Assembly (NCBI GenBank): GCA_043754435.1
Contig: JAYUUS010000124.1
Coordinates: 35,716-99,715, forward strand
Direction of reading: 5' to 3'
Source: Rhodanobacteraceae bacterium
GTDB lineage: Bacteria > Pseudomonadota > Gammaproteobacteria > Xanthomonadales > SZUA-5
Length of the DNA stretch: 64,000 nt
Part shown: piece by piece, positions 43,595-54,225 of the stretch
How positions within the stretch are numbered: position 1 is the first letter of the stretch
How the letters are laid out: the number at the start of each line of letters is the position of its first letter
Program-made: the position numbers and the translations under genes
Notes under the pieces: model-generated
Seen by the model: the letters and a program-made list of their open reading frames with translations, nothing else
Database searches by the model: none
Told to the model about the DNA's origin: nothing

Positions 43595-44911
43595 TTAATC
43601 CAATGTTTTGAGGATGTTTGCCAACTTGCCAAACAGCTCGTCAATATGCGTTTTCTCTAATATCAGCGGCGGCGACAGCGCAATAATATCGCCGGTGGTG
43701 CGAATCAAAATACCGTCCGCAAACGCGCGCTTAAACGCATTGAAGGCGCGTGCGCCGGGTTTGCCGGGAATGGTCGCTAACTCAATACCAGCAATCAAAC
43801 CGATGCTGCGCAAATCAATGACGTGCGGCAGGCCTTTGAGCGAATGCACCGCATCTGCCCAGTATTCCGCCATGCCACTCGCATGTTCCAGCACTTTTTG
43901 TTCTTCAAAAATTTCCAAGCTTGCTAGTGCCGCCGCACAGGCCAACGGGTGCCCGGAATAGGTATAGCCGTGAAATAGCTCAATGCCATCTGGGCCGTGC
44001 ATAAACGCATCATGGATAAAGGCTTTACTAAACACCGCCCCCATCGGCACCACACCGTTAGTCAGGCCTTTTGCCACCGTGACCATATCCGGCTCGACAT
44101 CGAAATAATCGAATGCGAAGGGCGTGGTCAGGCGGCCAAAGCCGGTAATCACCTCATCAAAAATCAACAAAATGCCGTGCTTGGTGCAGATTTCACGCAG
44201 GCGCTTCAAATAGTTTTTCGGTGGGATCAATACGCCCGTTGAACCCGCGACCGGCTCGACAATCACGGCGGCGATTGTGGAGGCGTCATGCAAGGTGACG
44301 ATGCGCTCTAACTCATCCGCCAAATGCGCGCCCCATGCCGGTTCGCCGCGCGAATAGGCGTTGTGTTCCAAATTATGCGTGTGTGGCAAGTGATCCACGC
44401 CCGCCAGCATACTGCCGAAAGACTTGCGATTACCCGCAATACCGCCGACCGAAATACCGCCAAAACCGACGCCGTGATAGCCACGTTCGCGCCCAATTAA
44501 GCGGGTGCGGGCTGCATCACCCCGCACCCGGTGATAGGCCAGCGCCATCTTTAATGCGGTATCAACCGCTTCTGAGCCTGAGTTGGTGTAAAAAACTTGA
44601 CCGAATTTGTGCTTGGTATACGCCATCAAACGCTCAGCTAACAAAAACGCCGCCGGGTGTGCCATTTGAAACGACGGCGAGTAGTCCAGTTGCCCGATCA
44701 TCTCCTGGACGGCTTTGACCAGTTTTGGCTGCCCATGCCCCAGGGGCACGCACCACAGTCCGGCCGTGCCGTCCAAAATTTGATTGCCATCAACGTCTTT
44801 GTAGTACATGCCGTGCGCGGACACCATCAGGCGCGGGTTCGCCTTAAAATCTCGGTTCGCGGTAAACGGCATCCAATAGGCAGACATCGCTTCGGGGCGG
44901 GTTTCATACAT
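43595..44911 (-). CDS. Class III PLP aminotransferase, beta-alanine/omega-amino acid:pyruvate type
   Basis: The probable start is ATG 44911 (MYETRPEAMSAYWMPFTANRDFK...). It has ...FYTNSGSEAVD..., DEVITGFGR and TVAKGLTNG (PLP Lys). The context with mmsA and preTA supports the beta-alanine assignment. Confidence 0.8.
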   Translation of the reverse strand: MYETRPEAMSAYWMPFTANRDFKANPRLMVSAHGMYYKDVDGNQILDGTAGLWCVPLGHGQPKLVKAVQEMIGQLDYSPSFQMAHPAAFLLAERLMAYTKHKFGQVFYTNSGSEAVDTALKMALAYHRVRGDAARTRLIGRERGYHGVGFGGISVGGIAGNRKSFGSMLAGVDHLPHTHNLEHNAYSRGEPAWGAHLADELERIVTLHDASTIAAVIVEPVAGSTGVLIPPKNYLKRLREICTKHGILLIFDEVITGFGRLTTPFAFDYFDVEPDMVTVAKGLTNGVVPMGAVFSKAFIHDAFMHGPDGIELFHGYTYSGHPLACAAALASLEIFEEQKVLEHASGMAEYWADAVHSLKGLPHVIDLRSIGLIAGIELATIPGKPGARAFNAFKRAFADGILIRTTGDIIALSPPLILEKTHIDELFGKLANILKTLD

Positions 44912-45150
44912 AACGCAAATCCTGTGCAAAATTCAAAAGTCCCCGACTGCATTTAGCAAGGTCGGATCGCAGTGGGTTCATCAGATCGCTCAGCAACAAG
45001 CGCGATTTGACGAAACCTTGACGGATGATTCTGACATGAAATTCATGCTCAATTGGCAGAACTTCAGATTTTGCATTCCGAACGAGACTAAATGCGCTCA
45101 AGCAGCCTTGAGCGAGTAATCTCCAGCGCTTCATTTCTTAGAGCGCCGAA

Positions 45151-45921
45151 ATGCCCGCTAACCCCGAACCTCAGCAAAATCATCTTCTGGCAGCCCTCAT
45201 GCCTGAGGTGCAAGCGCGTTTGTTCCCGTACTTGGAACTGGTGCCACTGCCATTACGCACGATCTTGTATGAATCCCGGCGCCCAATGCGGCATGTCTAT
45301 TTTCCTACGGACTCCATCGTCTCGCTGCAGTACGTCATGGAAAACGGCGCATCGACCGCAATCTTGGTGGTGGGCAACGAGGGTTTGCTAGGGATTAGTT
45401 TGCTGATGGGCGGGGAAAGCACGCCGAGCCGGTCCTTGGTGCAAAGTGCCGGTTACGCCTATCGCCTACCCAGACGTCGGGTGAAAGACGAGTTCAACCG
45501 CCACGGCCAGCTGCTCATGCTCATGCTGCGCTACACGCAGGCGCTGATTACCCAAGTCTCGCAGACCGCAGTTTGCAATCGGCACCATTCAATCGACCAG
45601 CAGCTCTGCCGCTGGCTTTTGCTGTCGATGGATCGCCTGTCGCATAACCAATTGACGATGACTCAAGAATTCATCAGCAATATGCTCGGCGTTCGCCGCG
45701 AGGGGGTCACCCAGGCCGCGTTGAGATTGCAGCAGCTCGGCGTAATTTCCTATGCGCGCGGTCTGATCAAAGTGCTTGACCGCGAAAAACTTGAAGCCTT
45801 GAGCTGCGAATGCTACGAAGTGGTTAAGAAGGAAACCGATCTGCTGCTGCATTATTTGCCACAGCGCCAAGTGATCACGAATACCGACTCCATTCCTATT
45901 GCAACGCTGCAAACGCCATAG
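45151..45921 (+). CDS. Crp/Fnr family transcriptional regulator
   Basis: 256 aa with an N-terminal cNMP-binding-like beta-roll and a C-terminal HTH (MTQEFISNMLGVRREGVTQAALRLQQLGVI). Confidence 0.85.
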   Translation: MPANPEPQQNHLLAALMPEVQARLFPYLELVPLPLRTILYESRRPMRHVYFPTDSIVSLQYVMENGASTAILVVGNEGLLGISLLMGGESTPSRSLVQSAGYAYRLPRRRVKDEFNRHGQLLMLMLRYTQALITQVSQTAVCNRHHSIDQQLCRWLLLSMDRLSHNQLTMTQEFISNMLGVRREGVTQAALRLQQLGVISYARGLIKVLDREKLEALSCECYEVVKKETDLLLHYLPQRQVITNTDSIPIATLQTP

Positions 45922-45967
45922 CATTCTGTATTCGCACCGGGTTTATTTTTCTAATCACCCATAAAGC

Positions 45968-45998
45968 AAAAGGCACCGCGATTCGGTGCCTTTTGTTT
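45968..45998 (+). terminator. Rho-independent terminator after the Crp/Fnr gene
   Basis: Stem ggcaccg (45972-45978) / cggtgcc (45984-45990) with loop cgatt, followed by ttttgttt. An A-run upstream makes it potentially bidirectional. Confidence 0.8.
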
Positions 45999-46061
45999 AG
46001 GATTAACGAGCAAACCAGTTCAGCACTTAGTTTGCCTTCAACGCAGCCTTAAATGGGCTGC

Positions 46062-46595
46062 TCAATACACTTCAAAGTCGCCACGGCAGCCTCTTGAAAC
46101 CCATACGCCACGACGATCAAAGCCCCAGCTGTAGCCCTCGGTGCAGGCGGCGCGACTCACTTGATTGACCAATCGAACACGGCCTCTGAATGGCAATGCG
46201 CAATACGCCTGCTGCTGATCATAGCTCTCACAGCGAACTACCGTCTCAGCTGGCTGTTGCGGCGCATAGCCACCACCGCCTCGGCGCTGCGGTTGGCGCT
46301 GCACCACTGAAGCAAAATTGCCTCTGCAGCCTTGACTCACCCACAACCCACGTCGATCCACGCCCCAGCTCTGGCCTTCAACACACTGAGAGCGCGAAGT
46401 TTGCTCAACCAAAACAACATCGCCCTGAGTATCAATGTCGCAATAGGCCACGCGGCCTTTGTAGCTCTCACAAACAACTTCGTCGATGACGTCAACATCA
46501 TCGTCATTCCACGCTGCGGCATGACCACTAAAAAATATTGAAGCGCTGCTTATCAATAAAAGCAAAAACAGCTTGAAATTTGTGTGCGAAATCAT
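46062..46595 (-). CDS. Secreted DUF3011-like protein with two Cys-rich repeats
   Basis: ATG 46595 is preceded by AAGGAG, and a signal peptide MISHTNFKLFLLLLISSASIFFSGHAAA follows. There are two repeats of C-ESY...AYC...V.LV.Q.S...C.EG.SWG.DRRG.WVS.GCRG.F. Confidence 0.7.
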   Translation of the reverse strand: MISHTNFKLFLLLLISSASIFFSGHAAAWNDDDVDVIDEVVCESYKGRVAYCDIDTQGDVVLVEQTSRSQCVEGQSWGVDRRGLWVSQGCRGNFASVVQRQPQRRGGGGYAPQQPAETVVRCESYDQQQAYCALPFRGRVRLVNQVSRAACTEGYSWGFDRRGVWVSRGCRGDFEVY

Positions 46596-46945
46596 AGTGA
46601 AGTGCTCCTTTAATGGTCGAACGATTGCAGCATGATAATGAAACAACTTGGTATTGAATGCTTTGTCAGAACAAATCAACGGCACCAGTCTAAACTTGAA
46701 TACTGAACAAAAACGCGCCATTCACTTCCTGGAGCCTGAACAAACTAGAGGGCTGCCAACTTCGTTCATAAACATGCTCGGCTGAGCCGCAGCGAGGACG
46801 AAAAAAACTTGATGCGATGCAATTTTTTCCGGTCTGTACTGTGCCAAGCCGCTACCATGCTTGTTCTTAACGACAAGCTCGGTGCATAGTCGAATCCTAT
46901 CGCCACTCAACATAATAACGCTCATTGTATGAAAACCTACACCGC

Positions 46946-48835
46946 ATGAAACTTCTCTCACATTGGCGCCTTGCGACAACCATCGGCTTGAGCCTGGCGG
47001 CGGCAATTGTCATAGCCCTTCCTGCATTAAGCGTACTGAGATTTCCGCTTGGTGCAACCTTTTTTTCAGCGGCTGTTTTTGCACTGGCGCTTGCAATTGC
47101 CGCAATCATTTGGCTCTATAATTTTCAAAGAAACCATATTATTGCTGCGGGAAAAGACGCAAATTTCCTTATCAAAACGATTCCACTGATTTTTTTTACG
47201 CTTGATAAGCAAATGCAATTGAGTCGATTAAAATCGGCAGGATTCGAAACATTTTTTTATGGTAAAAATTTTGGCGCAGGAACTGATTTTGCTCAAATTA
47301 TTAGTTTTTTGACGGATGTTCAGTTACGTCAACAAGCGGGTGACTATGTCAAGTTGATGCTCGCGCAACGCCAAAGTACGGTCATCGGCAGCAATCCGCT
47401 GGAATGCGTTTCGGCACTGATGCTTAATAGCGACGGTCGCCCTGAACTACGTTATTTTAAGTTCGCTTTTAGCGATTATTTTGAAAAGGGTCATTTCGCT
47501 GGAATCTTCGTTGCGATCAATGACATCTCTGATCTCGTCAATGCCAATGCTCAAGTGCAAGCGTTGATGCAAAAATCCGAGCACAGCGCGCAGTCTAGCG
47601 TGGATTTAATGCTTCGACTGCTTAAGCTTGACCGAAAAACGCTGCAAGAAAAGCTGGGAAGTTTTGAAAACTTGCTCGATGAGGCTAACCTTGATCTAAA
47701 AGATAGTGGCCACAGCGGCGTGCGGTATCAAACCCTGGCTGATCGCGTGCATAAAAAGATCAAACTGCTGAAAAATGACGCAGCCACGCTTGGTTTAAGC
47801 GAACTCAGCACGAGCGCTGCAGAAATGGCGGCGGAACTTGAAACACTGGGACAGAAAACCGAGCTATCAGGCAATGATTTTTTCAGCGTAGCACTAAAGC
47901 TGGATGAACTTTACGATTGCCTCCATAAATTAAGTGCTCTGATTGGTCAGCTTCCCGAGGCCGCCCTAACTGCAACTGCACCAGCCTACACACCTCCGTA
48001 TAAGTCAGTCGCCGCAGAACTGCCGGAAATGGCGCAAACAGCAGCAGGCACCACAGAAAAATCAGCATCCTCTAGTGAAACGGACTTGACTGGCTATAGG
48101 CCTGCATCCACTGATACCCCGCCTTTAGTTGATACCCCGCCCTTAGTTGATACCCCGCCCTTAGTTGATACCACGCCTTTGGTTGATCCCATAGTTAATC
48201 ATGCAAAACCCACAGCAACAGCACCCAGTCCAAACGCAGCGCGTGGCGTCGCAAATGCCCCCTCACTGCGTTTTGAATTCGCCTTAATTCAACAAGCATG
48301 TATTAGAACTGCCGAAAAATTAGGCAAAAAGGTGGTCGTACGTGCCCAAAACCTTGTTGCTGAAGCGGTTCCTGGCCGTCTGAAACAACCCTTAACGGAA
48401 ATTTTGGTGCAACTGATTCGTAGTTCACTATCAAATGGACTGGAGCTGCCCGCTGTTCGAACTGCTGCCGGCAAAGACGAAACCGCGACCATAACTCTTA
48501 CGTGGACACAACTAGCTAATAACGGCTATGAGTTAGTTTTTCGTGATGATGGCTGTGGTTTAAATTTTGAAATGATCCGTGCGCGTGCACTGGCGCTAAA
48601 CCGCCTATCTGCTGCCCAGGCTGAAGTACTCGAATCGCGTCAGCTAGTCGGATTTATCTTTGAACCTGGATTTTCTACTGCGATAAAAACCGGCGATAAC
48701 GCAGGTTTTGGTGTCGGTTTAGACTTGGTCATGGCAGCGGTAAAGCGAGCAGGCGGAAAAATCTCGGTGGGTACGCAGCCTGGACTCTACACCCAGTTTC
48801 GCGTCAGCTTCCCCGATTTAAAGGAACTCAGCTAA
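46946..48835 (+). CDS. Membrane-anchored Hpt + HATPase_c (CheA-core-like) protein, atypical
   Basis: The probable start is ATG 46946. Domains in order: two N-terminal TM helices; a cytoplasmic region of about 200 aa; an Hpt-like helix pair (...DRVHKKIKLLKNDAATLGLSELSTSAAEMAAELETL...); a Pro/Thr repeat linker; then an ATPase with G1 RDDGCGL and G2 GFGVGLDLV and a CheA-like FEPGFST. I see no DHp H-box, no CheW-like domain and no receiver domain. Confidence 0.6.
   Translation: MKLLSHWRLATTIGLSLAAAIVIALPALSVLRFPLGATFFSAAVFALALAIAAIIWLYNFQRNHIIAAGKDANFLIKTIPLIFFTLDKQMQLSRLKSAGFETFFYGKNFGAGTDFAQIISFLTDVQLRQQAGDYVKLMLAQRQSTVIGSNPLECVSALMLNSDGRPELRYFKFAFSDYFEKGHFAGIFVAINDISDLVNANAQVQALMQKSEHSAQSSVDLMLRLLKLDRKTLQEKLGSFENLLDEANLDLKDSGHSGVRYQTLADRVHKKIKLLKNDAATLGLSELSTSAAEMAAELETLGQKTELSGNDFFSVALKLDELYDCLHKLSALIGQLPEAALTATAPAYTPPYKSVAAELPEMAQTAAGTTEKSASSSETDLTGYRPASTDTPPLVDTPPLVDTPPLVDTTPLVDPIVNHAKPTATAPSPNAARGVANAPSLRFEFALIQQACIRTAEKLGKKVVVRAQNLVAEAVPGRLKQPLTEILVQLIRSSLSNGLELPAVRTAAGKDETATITLTWTQLANNGYELVFRDDGCGLNFEMIRARALALNRLSAAQAEVLESRQLVGFIFEPGFSTAIKTGDNAGFGVGLDLVMAAVKRAGGKISVGTQPGLYTQFRVSFPDLKELS
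48113..48184 (+). repeat. Coding tandem repeat, 4 x 18 bp (DTPPLV)n
   Basis: The four units are gataccccgcctttagtt, gataccccgcccttagtt, gataccccgcccttagtt and gataccacgcctttggtt, followed by a partial gatccc. The repeat lies within the linker of the 46946-48835 gene. Confidence 0.9.
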
Positions 48836-48923
48836 ATGCCTGCGTTAAAGAGAGTAGGTTCTATGCCACGCAAGCGCTGGCAACCCAGTTCGTGAAAGCG
48901 CAATGCCGAAAACGTTTAAAGTG

Positions 48924-48951
48924 GGAACTTTTCCATCAGTCCCCACTCAAC
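48924..48951 (+). promoter_or_regulatory. Candidate sigma-E (ECF) dependent promoter of rpoE
   Basis: GGAACTT (48924-48930), a 16-nt spacer, then TCAAC (47-51). This is a close match to the GGAACTT-N16-TCAAA/TCTGA autoregulated rpoE/algU promoter type. Confidence 0.6.
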
Positions 48952-49132
48952 GGCGCTAACTTCTATTGGCGATCCTCTTATGGCTTACGCACAGCTTACG
49001 CTATCGAATCCAGCACCTCCTCCGCCTATGCCCAATCCGAGCACTCTCTATGCGCTTAGCTCTACAGCTAAACCGCCGGCAGCGCAGGCTGCTGAATTGC
49101 AGGCTGCGTCTTCAGCCCTTGGAAGTGATTGG

Positions 49133-49714
49133 ATGACTGAAGCAGACCTTGATGTGTTGCTTGTGCAGCGGGCGCAAGCGGGCGAAATGAAAGCGTTCGA
49201 TTTGCTGATCCGCCGCTATCAGTCCAAGGTCATTGCCGCTATCGGGCGGCTCGTGCGGGATCGCACGGAGTGCGAAGATATTGCCCAAGAAGTGTTTTTA
49301 CGCGTCTATAAAAACCTCAACGGTTTTCGCGGTGAAAGTTCTTTCTACACGTGGATATATCGAATTTCATTAAACACCGCGAAAAATTTCTTGGCGTCAA
49401 ATAATCGGAAAATTAGCACATCTGGCTTAGAGCTTGATGTTGCGGATCAAATTCAAGATCCTGCAAGCCTGCGTGACCGCGCCACGCCAGAACGGGAATT
49501 CTTACGCGAAGAAATTCAGCGCGCGGTCGTCGAAAGTATGGCAGCACTGCCCCCGGATATTCGCTTGGCCCTGCATTTACGAGAACTTGAGGGCTTAAGC
49601 TATGAGAAAATCGCCGCACAAATGGATTGCCCGATTGGCACCGTACGCTCCAGAATTTTCCGTGCGCGTGAAGCGGTGGATAAACGCATCCGCCCTATGC
49701 TTGAGCAACACTAG
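49133..49714 (+). CDS. rpoE: ECF sigma factor RpoE/AlgU (sigma-24)
   Basis: Starting at ATG 49133 gives 193 aa (MTEADLDVLLVQRAQAGEMKAFDLLIRRYQSKV...), collinear with RpoE/AlgU. Region 2 (FRGESSFYTWIYRI) and region 4 (LRELEGLSYEKIAAQMDCPIGTVRSRIFRAREA) are present. The track start at 48980 adds a Pro/Ala-rich 51 aa with no RBS. Confidence 0.9.
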   Translation: MTEADLDVLLVQRAQAGEMKAFDLLIRRYQSKVIAAIGRLVRDRTECEDIAQEVFLRVYKNLNGFRGESSFYTWIYRISLNTAKNFLASNNRKISTSGLELDVADQIQDPASLRDRATPEREFLREEIQRAVVESMAALPPDIRLALHLRELEGLSYEKIAAQMDCPIGTVRSRIFRAREAVDKRIRPMLEQH

Positions 49715-49792
49715 TCGAAATAACAATGAAAACGATTTGCCTAACCCTCAAAGAAACTCAGTTTCTCATTATGCCGATCAGAGATACCTGCC

Positions 49793-50467
49793 ATGATTAA
49801 CGACAACCATTCAAATTCGCCGGAAGTATCAGAGTCGCTAAGGGAAAGCCTGTCAGCGCTGCTGGATGGTGAGCTAAACGCAACGGAATCAGCATTTTTA
49901 ATTAAGCGTATGGCGCACGACGCTGGACTTCATGCGCAATGGCAACGCTTTCAAGGCATTGGTGAAGTGCTGCGTGGGCAGGCGCAAATACTAGAGAACG
50001 ATCATTTCAGCGCCCGGGTTTTGAGCCGGATTGCACTTGCTGAGGCAGAATCAGCGAATGTGGCCCAAGCGTTTTCTGAGCCACTAATCACTGCAACAAA
50101 GCATAAATTCAACCGCCAAATGCTTCAGCGCTTTGGCGCGGGCATAGCCCTTGCGGCCGCAGTAGCCTGGGCCGCTTTACTGTTACCACAGCGCTATCAA
50201 GCTGATCTAGAGCCCCAGCGTGTCGCACAAACCGAAGCGCCATTTACCCTGGCAAGCCCGGTGGTCAGCATGCGCACAGTATCGGGTCACATTGGCGGTG
50301 AAGTGATGTCTGGCGCGGATCAAAACAACGCTTTGCTTGCGCAATCAATGGACGCTTTTTTATTAGAGCATGTACAACGTTCGCCCGTTTCGCCGATTTC
50401 TGATGCGGTGTATTTGCAAAATGTCGCACTCAGCGGCACAACAGAAATGCGCTTGGTACCTCAATGA
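49793..50467 (+). CDS. rseA: Anti-sigma-E factor (RseA/MucA-like)
   Basis: 224 aa. The N-terminal ...ESLSALLDGELNATE....AQWQRFQGIGEVLRG is the RseA_N pattern. A central TM (GAGIALAAAVAWAALLL) follows, and the position after rpoE fits. Confidence 0.8.
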   Translation: MINDNHSNSPEVSESLRESLSALLDGELNATESAFLIKRMAHDAGLHAQWQRFQGIGEVLRGQAQILENDHFSARVLSRIALAEAESANVAQAFSEPLITATKHKFNRQMLQRFGAGIALAAAVAWAALLLPQRYQADLEPQRVAQTEAPFTLASPVVSMRTVSGHIGGEVMSGADQNNALLAQSMDAFLLEHVQRSPVSPISDAVYLQNVALSGTTEMRLVPQ

Positions 50468-51318
50468 TGCGAGCGCTATTACCGGCCCTGTGCGGCTTTT
50501 TCATGTTACCGAGTTTATTGATGGCGCAAACACCAAGCGCCTCGGCCAACCGCGACACCTTGTTACAACGCTTTGTTGCACCCAAGCCAATGAGTTACCG
50601 CGCCGAGATCATTTTTGGGTCAAGTGATGCAAGCGCTGGCTTAACCATGCGTATTTTAGAAGTGCAAAATGGCCTGCTAACTTCCTCCCCTCCAGTACCG
50701 GGTGCACAATTTGCGATTTCTGATCAAACTAAAGCAATCGCTGCTTTGCTGAGTAATTATCAGGCGCAGTGGCAAGAAATTGCCGCGAATACAAAACTGG
50801 CAGACACAAGGCTTGCGGATCGCCCCATACAACAGCTCAAGTTGCTGCCTAGAGATGGCTGGCGCTATACCCGCGTGCTCTGGTTAGACGAACAAACAGG
50901 GATGCCACTGAAAACAGAAATCTATCGGAAAAATGAGCTTATTGAACGCGTTCAAGTAAAAAACATCCATTTTTTAGAGGCTGGTATTGACAGAACTCCA
51001 GGCGAAACGCCAAAAACGGAGCCAGCACCCGAAATTTCAACGCATTCAATGTTTTATGTGCGCAATGTACCGGCAGGGTTTGTGTTGACTTTGGTTTTTA
51101 GCGACGCCGTGCATGTGCAACAAATCTATAGTGATGGTGTAGCGCGCGTGAGCGTCTTCGTCCAGTCTTTAGGCGCGCTTCCTGCGGCTGGCTATACCCA
51201 ACGTGGCAGCACCGGCTTTGTCGTACGTAGAAGCGGCAACGTTGATTTGGTAGCGGTTGGCGATGTGCCGCAAGCGACGCTTGAGCGCTTTTTAAGCGGC
51301 GTAGACGCTGTCCAATAA
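50464..51318 (+). CDS. rseB: Sigma-E regulatory protein RseB/MucB
   Basis: 284 aa with a signal peptide. Its start overlaps the rseA stop (ATGA). Its length and position fit MucB/RseB. Confidence 0.75.
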   Translation: MMRALLPALCGFFMLPSLLMAQTPSASANRDTLLQRFVAPKPMSYRAEIIFGSSDASAGLTMRILEVQNGLLTSSPPVPGAQFAISDQTKAIAALLSNYQAQWQEIAANTKLADTRLADRPIQQLKLLPRDGWRYTRVLWLDEQTGMPLKTEIYRKNELIERVQVKNIHFLEAGIDRTPGETPKTEPAPEISTHSMFYVRNVPAGFVLTLVFSDAVHVQQIYSDGVARVSVFVQSLGALPAAGYTQRGSTGFVVRRSGNVDLVAVGDVPQATLERFLSGVDAVQ

Positions 51319-51507
51319 TAAACTTAATTCTTAAACCTTAGCCTTCGTGATTTGCTTTATTGACTGTTTGACTTAAACGTTCCGGGCTATGATCGCAGGC
51401 TACTCGGGCCTAGTAAGGCCTACTTAAGTTTACGCACACGGGCTCATGCTTTCTGCCAGCCAGGCGTTCGCTTTGCGCCGGATAATTGGCTTAGTAAAAA
51501 AGGTTCA

Positions 51508-53298
51508 ATGAAAAACATACGGAATTTTTCCATTATTGCGCACGTTGATCACGGAAAATCGACGTTATCAGACCGCTTTATCCAATTTTGCGGCGGCTTA
51601 AGCAATCGTGAAATGAGCGAGCAAGTGCTCGACAATATGGACATTGAGCGCGAGCGCGGCATTACGATCAAAGCCCAAAGCGTCTCACTTGACTATCTTG
51701 CGCTGGACGGCGAAACCTATCATTTGAATTTTATTGATACGCCTGGGCACGTTGATTTTTCCTACGAAGTCAGCCGCTCCTTATCTGCTTGCGAAGGCGC
51801 GTTGCTGGTGGTTGATGCCGCGCAAGGTGTAGAAGCCCAAAGCGTTGCCAACTGCTATACCGCTGTCGAGATGGGTTTAGAAGTCGTACCCGTGCTGAAT
51901 AAAATAGATTTGCCCACCGCCGACCCAGACCGAGTGCGCCAAGAAATTGAAGACGTGATCGGCATTGACGCCACGGACGCCGTCGAAGTCAGCGCCAAGA
52001 CTGGCCTTAATATCCGTGAAGCTTTGGAAGCGTTGGTCAAGCGCATCCCCGCACCGACCCAGCCACCGGGTGACGAAGTCAAAGCACTGATTATCGACTC
52101 CTGGTTCGACAACTATCTAGGCGTCGTGTCGCTGGTTCGCGTGATGCAGGGCGTCTTTAAGAAAGGCGACAAAATTTTAGTGATGTCTACGGGGCGCACG
52201 CATCAAATTGAAGAAATGGGTGTATTTACGCCCAAGCGGGTTTTGCGGGATCGTCTGAGCGCCGGGCAAGTCGGCTTTATTTGCGCGTCCATTAAAGAAG
52301 TTCACGGTGCGCCCGTAGGCGACACGCTAACGCTTGCCAGCAAACCCGCCGCCGAACCGCTCCCAGGCTTTCAGAAAATCAAACCCCGCGTGTTTGCCGG
52401 CATGTTTCCCGTCAACGGCGAGGATTACCCGGCGCAACGCGAGGCCCTAGAAAAACTCAAGCTCAATGATTCCTCGATCACTTTTGAGCCAGAAAGTTCA
52501 GAGGCTATGGGCTTTGGCTTTCGCATCGGCTTTCTGGGCTTGCTGCACATGGAAATTGTGCAAGAGCGCTTGGAGCGTGAGTACGACCTAGATTTGGTCA
52601 CCACCGCGCCGACCGTGATCTATCAGCTTGAATTGACCGACGGCAGCATTGTCGAGCTGGATAACCCCGCAAAACTACCGGCCGGGCACTTGGTCGCAGA
52701 AATTCGCGAACCCATCATCACTGCGAACATTTTGGTACCACCCGACTATCTAGGTTCGGTTATCAAGCTATGCGAAGAAAAGCGTGGCACTCAAAAGAGC
52801 TTAAATTTTTTGGGCACCCAGGTTGCGGTGGTTTATGAGTTGCCGCTTTCAGAAGTGGTTATGGACTTTTTCGACAAACTGAAAAGCGTTTCACGCGGTT
52901 ACGCCAGCTTTGACTACACCTTTAATCGCTTTGAAGCGGGGCCTTTCGTGCGCGTTGACGTATTAATCAACGGTGATCGGGTCGATGCCCTCAGCCTGAT
53001 TACGCACCGGGGTGTTGCGGATCGTCGCGGACGTGATCTGGTAGAAAAATTACGTGAACTGGTGCCGCGCCAAATGTTCGACGTGGCGATTCAGGCGGCT
53101 ATTGGCGCACAAATCATCGCGCGTTCAACAGTGAAGGCAATGCGGAAAAACGTGCTGGCAAAATGCTACGGCGGTGACGCGACACGTAAGAAGAAACTGC
53201 TAGAGAAGCAAAAAGAAGGTAAAAAACGCATGAAACAAGTTGGTAATGTTGAAATACCTCAAGAAGCGTTCCTTGCCGTACTCAAACTAGATCGCTAA
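51508..53298 (+). CDS. lepA: Translation elongation factor 4 (LepA)
   Basis: 596 aa with [28 protein letters not shown] and the LepA-specific C-terminal domain (...[25 protein letters not shown]...). Confidence 0.97.
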
Positions 53299-53367
53299 TT
53301 CAAGCAAACGGGTTTCGCGCAAATAGCCGCGCTACTCTAAAAGTTAAGTCCAACGTGGTTAAAAATT

Positions 53368-54225
53368 ATGAATGTTGATTTCCCCCTGATTCTTACCGTT
53401 TTAGCACTATTTTCTGGCTTGATTTGGCTGGTCGATGCGCTCTTTTTTGCGCGCGCCCGACGTGCAAGAAACGCGGCCGTTGCCGAAGGCGAACTGCCGG
53501 AGAAGGAATCATGGCTGACTGAGCAGGCCAAGGCGTTTTTTCCAGTATTAATGATTGTTTTATTAGTGCGATCGTTCTGGTTCGAGCCCTTTCAGATTCC
53601 TAGCGGTTCTATGATGCCAACGCTGTTGGTTGGGGATTTTATTGTCGTCAACAAGTATGCCTATGGCTTACGCTTGCCCGTAACCAATCAGAAAATTCTC
53701 AACTTAGGTGAACCCAAGCGTGGTGACGTTGTGATCTTTAGACGGCCAGCGCGCCAGGCTGAATTTGATAGCCCGATGTCAGCCGATCAACGCGTTAAGG
53801 ACTTGGCGATTGTGGGGGCGACTTTTATCAAACGCTGTGTCGGCCTGCCTGGCGATACGATTAGCTACCAAAACCATGAGTTCCGAGTTAATGGCGAATT
53901 GATTGTGCACACGCCAATTGGCAACTACATCACCGATGCTTCGAGTGAAGCGCCCACTGAAGCGATCCTGCAAAGTGAAAACCTGCTGGGCGTCACCCAT
54001 CAAACGCTGACTACGCCCTATGGACAGCTCAATGGCCAGTGGACTGTGCCTGCGGGGCACTATTTGATGATGGGTGATAACCGCGACGGTAGTTCAGATA
54101 GTCGCGATTGGGGCTTTGTGCCTGAAGAAAATTTGATGGGCCGCGCCAGTTTTATTTGGATGCACTGGGATTGGAAGCGCAAAGGCGTCGTCGCTTGGAA
54201 TAGAATCGGCACCACAGTACATTAA
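53368..54225 (+). CDS. lepB: Signal peptidase I
   Basis: 285 aa with the catalytic Ser box IPSGSMMPTL, the Lys box IKRCVGLPGD and GDNRDGSSDSR. Confidence 0.95.
   Translation: MNVDFPLILTVLALFSGLIWLVDALFFARARRARNAAVAEGELPEKESWLTEQAKAFFPVLMIVLLVRSFWFEPFQIPSGSMMPTLLVGDFIVVNKYAYGLRLPVTNQKILNLGEPKRGDVVIFRRPARQAEFDSPMSADQRVKDLAIVGATFIKRCVGLPGDTISYQNHEFRVNGELIVHTPIGNYITDASSEAPTEAILQSENLLGVTHQTLTTPYGQLNGQWTVPAGHYLMMGDNRDGSSDSRDWGFVPEENLMGRASFIWMHWDWKRKGVVAWNRIGTTVH

Follow-up and report, generated by a model that had tools for sequence, protein, structure and literature searches.

What is the role of a membrane-anchored protein that pairs an Hpt-like segment with a CheA-like ATPase and is encoded directly beside rpoE? 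This question is raised by a gene at positions 46946 to 48835 in a 64,000-nucleotide stretch of DNA from a Rhodanobacteraceae bacterium (assembly GCA_043754435.1, contig JAYUUS010000124.1, positions 35,716 to 99,715 of the forward strand). We call this whole stretch the window and give all coordinates in it unless a locus is named. A preliminary description, made from the sequence alone, had considered the protein hard to place and offered three readings of it, a phosphorelay component, a pseudokinase or an envelope-stress input. The difficulty of placement is now resolved, for we found that the protein belongs, as a derived member, to a large family of sensor-PAS-Hpt-P4 kinases. We consider it likely that the protein is a phosphotransfer-dead pseudokinase that descends from a module formed by such a kinase with CheY and CheX, and that it acts through binding.

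The gene encodes a membrane-anchored protein with CheA-type domains

The open reading frame ends at 48835 on the forward strand and has two possible starts, a TTG at 46925 and an ATG at 46946. In alignments the close homologues all start with MK, and the likely product is therefore the one of 629 amino acids that starts at the ATG. A word-indexed search returned 17 clusters of close homologues with 62-94% identity, followed by two distant relatives with Pfam Hpt and HATPase_c domains and then by ordinary CheAs that matched through P4 only. An AlphaFold2 model with 19 homologues as input had a mean predicted local distance difference test score (pLDDT) of 67. In this model, helices at residues 2-30 and 36-78 lead into an alpha/beta domain (82-193). 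Next come a single long helix (195-227) and a set of four helices (230-334), which a stretch without structure (339-441) separates from the alpha/beta ATPase domain (445-622).

When the protein was scanned with Pfam, HATPase_c (PF02518) was the sole match. There was no match to H-kinase_dim, CheW or Response_reg, which bears out the earlier statement that DHp, CheW and receiver domains are lacking. In keeping with the absence of a match to PF01584 for the CheW-like P5 domain, the chain stops 5-7 residues past P4. Overall, AlphaFold2, Pfam and Foldseek agree with the anatomy that had been read by eye, namely a transmembrane hairpin, a PAS-like region, an Hpt-like bundle, a repeat-containing linker and a CheA-type ATPase. 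The features of the gene are as follows.

46946 to 48835, forward strand: whole coding sequence, 629 amino acids; a membrane-anchored PAS / pseudo-Hpt / pseudo-P4 protein, probably a CheA-derived pseudokinase.
46970 to 47119, forward strand: transmembrane hairpin, about residues 9-58, from the AlphaFold2 helices and from hydrophobic stretches read from the sequence.
47183 to 47530, forward strand: cytoplasmic PAS-fold domain, residues ~80-195, from a sub-model and Foldseek.
47531 to 47953, forward strand: connecting helix (residues 195-227) and four-helix bundle (230-334), an Hpt domain by descent without the phospho-histidine.
47762 to 47764, forward strand: codon of K273, at the position of the phospho-accepting Hpt histidine (coordinates verified).
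47954 to 48268, forward strand: disordered linker rich in Pro, Thr and Ala, residues 337-441, sitting where CheA has P2/P3.
48112 to 48187, forward strand: 18-bp tandem repeat, 4.2 copies, encoding (DTPPLV)4 (Tandem Repeats Finder score 124, 93% matches).
48269 to 48832, forward strand: CheA-P4-type GHKL domain, residues 442-629, with G1, F, G2 and GT motifs kept and a degenerate N-box.
48422 to 48424, forward strand: codon of S493, at the N-box Asn site (Asn380 of E. coli CheA, a Mg2+ ligand; coordinates verified).

As read from the sequence, the two hydrophobic stretches of the hairpin have positive residues on both sides and are separated by a periplasmic loop of about 6 residues, suggesting that the protein is cytoplasmic and anchored by the hairpin. 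The hairpin stands where intact relatives have a periplasmic sensor of ~150 amino acids. In the alignment, the relatives P0018 and P0019 have a long N-terminal extension, and the protein of locus L017 has a PilJ-like sensor at that place. We modelled residues 75-340 separately (pLDDT 81.8) and found with Foldseek that this sub-model matches PAS, LOV, FixL and DosP structures (best match 3k3c, E 1.5e-5). Thus, the region that had been described as possibly PAS-like does have a PAS fold. The domain is unrecognised by Pfam, though it is conserved family-wide, and the residues D114, F115, D133, Y134, N150-P151-L152, G164, R165 and E167 are invariant and common to the intact outgroups.

The phospho-accepting histidine and the N-box asparagine are both replaced

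The four-helix bundle had been described as Hpt-like. Pfam Hpt gave no match to the window protein at E<=1. We made a profile of the bundle from members of the degenerate clade to which the window protein belongs; this profile had no match to CheA P1 (hhalign 3.6%), and among PDB sequences it matched designed helical proteins only and no solved Hpt. The 50 matches listed by Foldseek for the sub-model of PAS domain and bundle were PAS/LOV-type sensors and PAS-containing kinases, with no stand-alone Hpt or CheA P1 among them. The clade profile did match the same region of 20 intact family members (hhalign 99.3%, E 5e-20), with Lys placed on His. In turn, the intact-family region matched CheA P1 (hhalign 97.3%, E 2e-11) and solved CheA P1 structures (1tqg, E 7.5e-9; also 2ld6 and 1i5n), and at the corresponding position of intact members Pfam does recognise an Hpt domain. 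Because the profile matches lead from the clade through the intact family to CheA P1, we conclude that the bundle is an Hpt domain by descent with an eroded signature. The earlier description as Hpt-like thus stands, though without a Pfam call, and the histidine that had been quoted is not the phospho-site.

In E. coli CheA the P1 phospho-site is His48 (PMC10410752). In three separate alignments, K273 of the window protein was aligned to the His of the motif H-x-[IL]-K-G, a replacement that had been overlooked in the preliminary description. The relatives have FRP[IL]H[TA]LKGE at this place and the window protein has HKKIKLLKND. All members of the degenerate clade have Lys at the His site with the sole exception of an Arg in P0011/L002, and the basic stretch KKIKLLKN at the former His site is invariant in the clade. 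We also considered H269 (in DRVH) as a phospho-site and rejected it; it lies four residues before the motif position, and clade members have H, Y, R, C or G there. The protein contains eight His residues, and since not one of them is invariant across the clade, a conserved phospho-His at another site is ruled out.

The C-terminal domain is matched by Pfam HATPase_c over residues 486-624 (E 5e-12), and in NCBIfam it is matched best, and only locally, by two CheA models (E 9e-24 and 3e-20). Its best PDB sequence matches are CheA P4 structures (6s1k, E 5e-21; 1i58, E 2e-16), and Foldseek also returned CheA P4 (1i58, E 2e-14; template modelling scores of 0.8-0.89, normalised to the target). Pfam, PDB and Foldseek therefore agree on the CheA-like Bergerat ATPase that had been recognised from its G1, G2 and FEPGFST motifs. 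The motifs present are FRDDGCGL (G1), FEPGFST (F) and GFGVGLDLV (G2).

In CheA, Mg2+ is coordinated by His376 and Asn380 of the N-box, and the residues of the other motifs are Asp420/Gly422 (G1), Phe455/Phe459 (F), Gly470/472/474 (G2) and Thr499 (GT) (PMC10410752). The alignment to 6s1k sets the E. coli CheA N-box, LTHLVRNSLDHGIE, against LVQLIRSSLSNGLE of the window protein. This places S493 at the position of Asn380, so that the replacement of this Asn, raised before as something that may have happened, is confirmed. The E. coli CheA residues correspond to the following residues of the window protein.

His376: Q489; Gln or Glu in nearly the whole family, intact members included.
Asn380: S493; Ser in the whole degenerate clade, Asn in all other family members scored.
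His384: N497.
Asp420 and Gly422 (G1): D534 and G536 (with G538); kept.
Phe455 and Phe459 (F): F572 and F576; kept.
Gly470, Gly472 and Gly474 (G2): G587, G589 and G591; kept.
Arg471 (G2): F588; replaced, with Arg conserved in almost all intact members.
Thr499 (GT): T616; kept.

The clade also has DDG[CY]G for DDGRG in G1 and GFG for GRG in G2.

The parent family is encoded with CheY and usually CheX

Using tblastn, we found full-length homology over residues ~55-623 in ~50 loci, which defines a family of membrane sensor-PAS-Hpt-P4 kinases. An exhaustive profile search at E<=1e-30 yielded 1,651 clusters (50% identity); P0010 and the fragment P0055 were the sole representatives of the window's clade in the 150 matches listed. 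A genome scan placed the proteobacterial relatives in Lysobacterales, Wenzhouxiangella, Burkholderiales, Rhodocyclales and Alphaproteobacteria, the Rhodocyclales/Burkholderiales carriers being Niveibacterium, Propionivibrio and Formivibrio citricus DSM 6150. Beyond Proteobacteria, the scan placed relatives in Verrucomicrobiota, Vulcanimicrobiota/Eremiobacterota and Thermoanaerobaculia. The nearest intact members belong to Lysobacterales, the same order as the window.

The Hpt His and the N-box Asn are both intact in 48 of the 52 loci fetched and in 145 of 149 representatives. The corresponding family motifs are H-x-[IL]-K-G and R-N-x-x-x-H, where the window's clade has instead KLLKN and RSSLSN. 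Among the loci and representatives scored, only this clade combines Lys or Arg at the His site with Ser at the Asn site. Neither P3 (H-kinase_dim) nor P5 (CheW) was found in any of eight family members scanned. The N-terminal sensors differ within the family, being PilJ-like in L017, dCache with HAMP in L021 and absent in L045 and L034.

Clustering of open reading frames from 48 loci called a CheY-like gene at position +1 after the kinase in 21 loci and a second gene at +2 in 19. In most other loci minus-strand open reading frames occupy these two positions, and these are probably antisense shadows of cheY and cheX in GC-rich DNA. Pfam names the +1 partner Response_reg (7e-26) and the +2 partner CheX (5e-17); in a Vulcanimicrobiota/Rhodospirillales subgroup CheY is present and a different gene is at +2. 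The intact unit is a compact module of the kinase and CheY, usually then followed by CheX, and is found at the following loci.

L004-L080, for example L005:7374-10330, L013:7323-10302, L017:7176-10283 and L021:6318-10295: module loci.
L084:530-3559 and L085:6599-9646: further module loci.

Public sources label members of the family merely "CheA" or "HPt domain-containing protein". The architecture was undescribed in the full-text literature searched, a body of work that most subscription journals lie outside and that leaves novelty unproven.

A tblastn search of the 64-kb window, for which we used 40 queries, gave no receiver or CheX gene, nor was there one in L001-L003. Between the gene and rpoE, tblastn also found no remnants of cheY or cheX. 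No CheW family occurs within ~8 kb on each side of the gene in the orthologous locus L082, which was annotated with Pfam. Thus, the earlier observation that no response regulator, CheW or CheY gene is nearby holds for the window by tblastn and, in the case of CheW, through L082.

Partners and catalytic residues appear to have been lost in steps

The closest intact relative, P0018, is 42% identical to the window protein. Its contig (L084) carries, in order, a divergent DUF3011 fragment, the kinase, Response_reg, CheX, sigma-70_r2/r4 (rpoE), RseA_N and rseB, and the DUF3011 fragment is 53% identical to the DUF3011 protein of the window (E 4e-19). This layout suggests that the place beside rpoE and DUF3011 is ancestral and that CheY and CheX once lay between the kinase gene and rpoE. 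P0046 is a divergent relative of 587 amino acids without the periplasmic domain, and its locus matches the window in gene order (DUF3011 / gene / rpoE-rseA-rseB-lepA). In this protein Tyr occupies the His site, G2 reads GFG and the N-box Asn is intact.

A neighbor-joining tree from 507 columns with 100 bootstrap replicates supported the degenerate clade (100/100), its union with P0046 (100/100) and the union of both with the pair of P0018 and P0044 (84/100). Since the sister P0046 has kept the Asn but carries Tyr in place of the His, the His was probably lost before the Asn. From the sequences it appears that the sensor, CheY/CheX, the His and the G2 Arg were lost first and the N-box Asn later. 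P0044, which together with P0018 makes up the nearest intact sister pair, is not encoded beside rpoE. At its locus (L085:993-4111), three genes upstream of kinase, CheY and CheX, a Sigma70_ECF gene overlaps the gene of a large Ser/Thr protein kinase; the presence of this extracytoplasmic function (ECF) sigma neighbour is probably coincidental.

In two Vulcanimicrobiota members of the family (L049:7632-9455 and L073:7689-9449) the Hpt His is replaced by Arg and the F or G2 boxes are eroded. No CheY-like gene was found anywhere in these 13-17-kb loci, and all six of their intact close relatives examined have a CheY gene that abuts or overlaps the kinase stop. Because L049 and L073 repeat the pattern independently, His loss and receiver loss appear to have been coupled at least twice. 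Judged by these replacements, the two genes are a second, independent origin of a predicted pseudokinase state.

The folded domains are under purifying selection

We compared members of the degenerate clade pairwise by the Nei-Gojobori method and obtained the following ratios of nonsynonymous to synonymous substitution rates (dN/dS); some values were not computable.

Whole gene: 0.07-0.16.
PAS: 0.08-0.11.
Hpt-like: 0.05-0.07, and 0.19 in the near-identical pair of the window and L081.
P4-like: 0.04-0.08, the lowest in the protein.
Linker: 0.27-0.55.

Domains and linker differ consistently, also in the 94%-identical pair. The protein is kept by selection, and its PAS, pseudo-Hpt and pseudo-P4 domains are under purifying selection.

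The linker has a pLDDT below 50 over residues 339-441 in the AlphaFold2 model. Its identity is 20-31% among clade members and 85% in the near-identical window/L081 pair. A P3/DHp domain, sought with Pfam H-kinase_dim (PF02895), gave no match in the linker or the rest of the protein. Tandem Repeats Finder recovered the (DTPPLV)4 repeat noted earlier (18 bp x 4.2), and this repeat is shorter in P0001, which is 94% identical overall.

The 5' third of the gene had been described as AT-rich, and the GC content of 300-bp windows indeed falls to 0.39 at 47000-47299. Over 425 such windows the mean was 0.524 (standard deviation 0.041, minimum 0.387), with a single one at or below 0.40, and the minimum presumably is the dip in this gene. 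The orthologues have the same dip and the GC content at second codon positions in the PAS region is 0.345, so that amino-acid composition accounts for much of it. For the same reasons horizontal transfer is disfavoured as the source of the AT-rich 5' third. The GC content at third codon positions (GC3) is 0.42 in this gene, the lowest in the neighbourhood 43595-54225, where the nine genes compared have 0.48-0.69 and where synteny has long been conserved. Low expression, codon bias or amino-acid composition may account for this low GC3.

The gene lies between DUF3011 and the sigma-E operon

The neighbours of the gene are the following.

46062 to 46721, reverse strand: DUF3011 gene, divergent upstream neighbour (Pfam E 4e-36).
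48924 to 48951, forward strand: sigma-E-type promoter motif GGAACTT-N16-TCAAC, ahead of rpoE.
48980 to 51318, forward strand: rpoE, rseA and rseB, conserved downstream neighbours, tied to the gene by synteny only.
48980 or 49133 to 49714: rpoE (TIGR02939, 263 bits).
49793 to 50467: rseA.
50464 to 51318: rseB.

Pfam and NCBIfam thus recognise both neighbours that had been named before, the divergent DUF3011 gene upstream and RpoE, RseA and RseB downstream. As listed, the DUF3011 reading frame has 219 amino acids and the orthologues are called at 177-183. Its start is probably nearer 46595, at a Met before the signal-peptide-like stretch MISHTNFKLFLLLLISSASIFF... The protein contains two Cys-rich repeats. 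It is conserved in all syntenic loci (L081, L082, L083 and L086), and a fragment of it is present in L084, where the intact P0018 is encoded. The rpoE-rseA-rseB synteny is found in L001-L003, L081-L083, L086 and L084.

The promoter motif follows what we take to be the sigma-E consensus. It has 1 match in the window, where 0.06 are expected, and it occurs at the same position in L001, L002, L081, L082, L083 and L086. This uniqueness and its retention in six sister loci support the earlier claim that the sigma-E operon has its own promoter. A sigma-70 scan of 46600-49250 found no promoter-like site. A terminator scan of the same region found two sites, both inside the coding sequence and fewer than in shuffled sequences, so that these scans carry little information.

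A low-complexity extension of 51 amino acids (48980-49132) precedes the RpoE core; TIGR02939 begins at residue 52, the ATG at 49133. We compared this region in L081, L082, L001, L002, L003 and L086. The extension is in frame in the window and in five close sister loci, its length changes are multiples of three, and its ends are conserved (MAYAQxTLSNP ... ALGS[DN]W-MTEADL). The divergent L086 has its own in-frame upstream open reading frame that ends in ...GSNW-MTEADL. Gene callers are split on the length of RpoE (244 versus 193 amino acids). From this conservation, the sigma-E of the lineage may have a genuine extension at its N-terminus or a leader that is translated.

A probable phosphotransfer-dead pseudokinase and its alternatives

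We propose that in one Lysobacterales/Rhodanobacteraceae lineage the periplasmic sensor and cheY-cheX would have been deleted and the Hpt phospho-His replaced. In a later step the Mg2+-ligating Asn of the N-box would have been replaced, with the protein still under selection. With no canonical autophosphorylation site and no dedicated receiver, the relay of phosphate was presumably lost and the protein would no longer carry phosphate. It is probably a membrane-anchored dimer, and because P3 is absent the PAS domain and the helix at 195-227 are the sole candidates for dimerisation. The PAS domain may still sense a cytoplasmic or membrane-proximal cue. The basic face of the pseudo-Hpt domain (KKIKLLKN) and the pseudo-P4 domain would then signal through protein-protein contacts in the manner of DivL, and the pseudo-P4 domain, with its pocket largely intact, may still bind nucleotide. 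The pseudokinase reading, one of the three offered originally, is supported more strongly now that K273 as well as S493 is replaced and none of the eight His residues is invariant.

Several points weigh against this reading. The loss of activity is predicted from two residues, and the perfectly kept G1, F, G2 and GT motifs would fit residual or altered ATP-dependent activity too. That the protein acts by binding is argued by elimination and analogy. The absence of partners covers local DNA, and a CheY/CheX pair or an intact paralogue could lie elsewhere in the genome. In addition, dS is saturated in the deeper pairs, which makes their dN/dS values approximate.

The main rival, which we regard as unlikely, is that the protein has kept enzymatic activity as a non-canonical kinase or ATPase that depends on ATP. 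It would hold its metal through Ser493 and water or through another ligand and pass the phosphoryl group to a separate protein or to Ser, Thr, Tyr or Lys. Such an enzyme would explain why the G1, F, G2 and GT residues are invariant and why dN/dS is lowest in the P4-like domain, and in the sister P0046 the former His site holds Tyr, as it does in DivL. However, the N-box Asn, a Mg2+ ligand in CheA, is kept in all other family members scored. The change of the G2 Arg to Phe, the lack of an invariant His in the clade and the deletion of both dedicated partners also argue against retained catalysis.

It is similarly improbable that the protein serves as an envelope-stress input to sigma-E by binding RseA/RseB or sigma-E itself, possibly together with the secreted DUF3011 protein. 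This would be compatible with a phosphotransfer-dead pseudokinase that acts by binding and would name its target. The gene order DUF3011 / gene / rpoE-rseA-rseB is kept in all contigs of the degenerate group that were read and also at P0046 and the intact P0018, and there is no terminator-like site between the gene and rpoE. However, the link is one of inherited synteny, and the adjacency is older than the degeneration, with CheY and CheX then in between. Moreover, rpoE has its own conserved sigma-E-type promoter, and P0044 and ~45 other family loci are not beside an RpoE-type gene. The order rpoE-rseAB-lepA-lepB-rnc-era is a conserved housekeeping synteny, in which a neighbour can persist by inertia.

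We hold it doubtful that recruitment has made the protein a novel input, cytoplasmic or in the membrane, to the sigma-E system of Rhodanobacteraceae-like bacteria, the intact parent family being undescribed, widespread, CheW-independent kinases. In such a recruitment the PAS domain would sense a signal, and RseA or sigma-E would be the binding target of the pseudo-Hpt and pseudo-P4 domains, unless these act together with DUF3011.

A working phosphorelay or Hpt component, as had been suggested at first, would suit the pairing of Hpt ancestry with a CheA-type domain, but it is very improbable with Lys at the canonical site, no receiver gene nearby, a variable H269 as the example of another phosphate-carrying His and none of the eight His residues invariant. 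We give hardly any credence to a decaying, functionless remnant: the losses of catalytic residues, sensor and partner genes and the lowest GC3 of the neighbourhood would agree with decay, but full-length open reading frames are intact in 17 clusters and in the window, L001-L003 and P0046, at 62-94% identity and less, and dN/dS is 0.04-0.11 in the folded domains (window/L081 pair excepted) against 0.3-0.55 in the linker.

Few pseudo-histidine kinases are known, and we found none that derives from CheA. If the window protein is a phosphotransfer-dead pseudokinase, related genomes hold a natural series: intact kinases with CheY/CheX, a protein that has lost the His and the partners and kept the Asn, and proteins that have lost both residues. 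With purifying selection throughout and a replicate in another phylum, the fate of a kinase domain after the loss of kinase activity becomes directly testable. The parent family, a very common CheA P1-P4 core without P3, P5 and CheW, is perhaps the more important by-product of this work. If the adjacency to rpoE were functional, the protein would be a new kind of sigma-E input, a CheA-derived regulator of an ECF sigma factor.

Comparison with known systems

The window protein resembles CheA in its P4-type C-terminal domain, by sequence and by fold, in the P1-type ancestry of its bundle and in the order of P1 then P4. Unlike CheA, it is without P2, P3 and P5, is membrane-anchored and has its own PAS domain, and its phospho-His and N-box Asn are replaced. 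There is also no CheW, methyl-accepting chemotaxis protein or CheY gene near it. Because four of the five defining features of CheA (a P1 with phospho-His, P3, the N-box and P5) are lacking and P4 alone is present, the protein is not CheA proper.

In the split CheA3/CheA4 of Rhodobacter sphaeroides, CheA domains are reshuffled and still work as incomplete sets. Those proteins, however, have intact catalytic residues, depend on CheW and receptors and complement one another, whereas the window protein has both halves in one chain and both are degenerate.

SpoIIAB and RsbW are small GHKL anti-sigma kinases with an intact N-box, STAS anti-anti-sigma partners and sigmas of the sigma-B/F type. The likeness to them is that a GHKL-fold protein is encoded beside a sigma-factor gene. 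The window protein differs in being a 629-amino-acid multidomain protein of the CheA-P4 type with a degenerate N-box, and sigma-E already has RseA/RseB. No STAS family was found among the Pfam-annotated neighbours of the orthologous locus L082.

DivL of Caulobacter crescentus is described, in a passage of PMC12471899 that cites Reisinger 2007, as a pseudokinase that is independent of kinase activity and works by protein-protein interaction. The window protein is likewise derived from histidine kinases and has its phospho-His replaced. The sister P0046 shows a further likeness, with Tyr in place of the phospho-His. DivL belongs to the class I DHp-CA kinases and does not derive from CheA, which limits the homology to the GHKL fold, and it has the known partners DivK and CckA. 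As in a pseudo-histidine kinase, the acceptor and ATP-site residues of the window protein are replaced (K273 and S493), yet the protein is maintained.

The closest comparison is with the sensor-PAS-Hpt-P4 family itself, with which the window protein shares full-length homology, the PAS signature residues and the domain order. The window's clade differs from the family by the loss of the His, the Asn, the G2 Arg, the periplasmic sensor and CheY/CheX. The protein is a derived, degenerate member of this large CheA-derived family.

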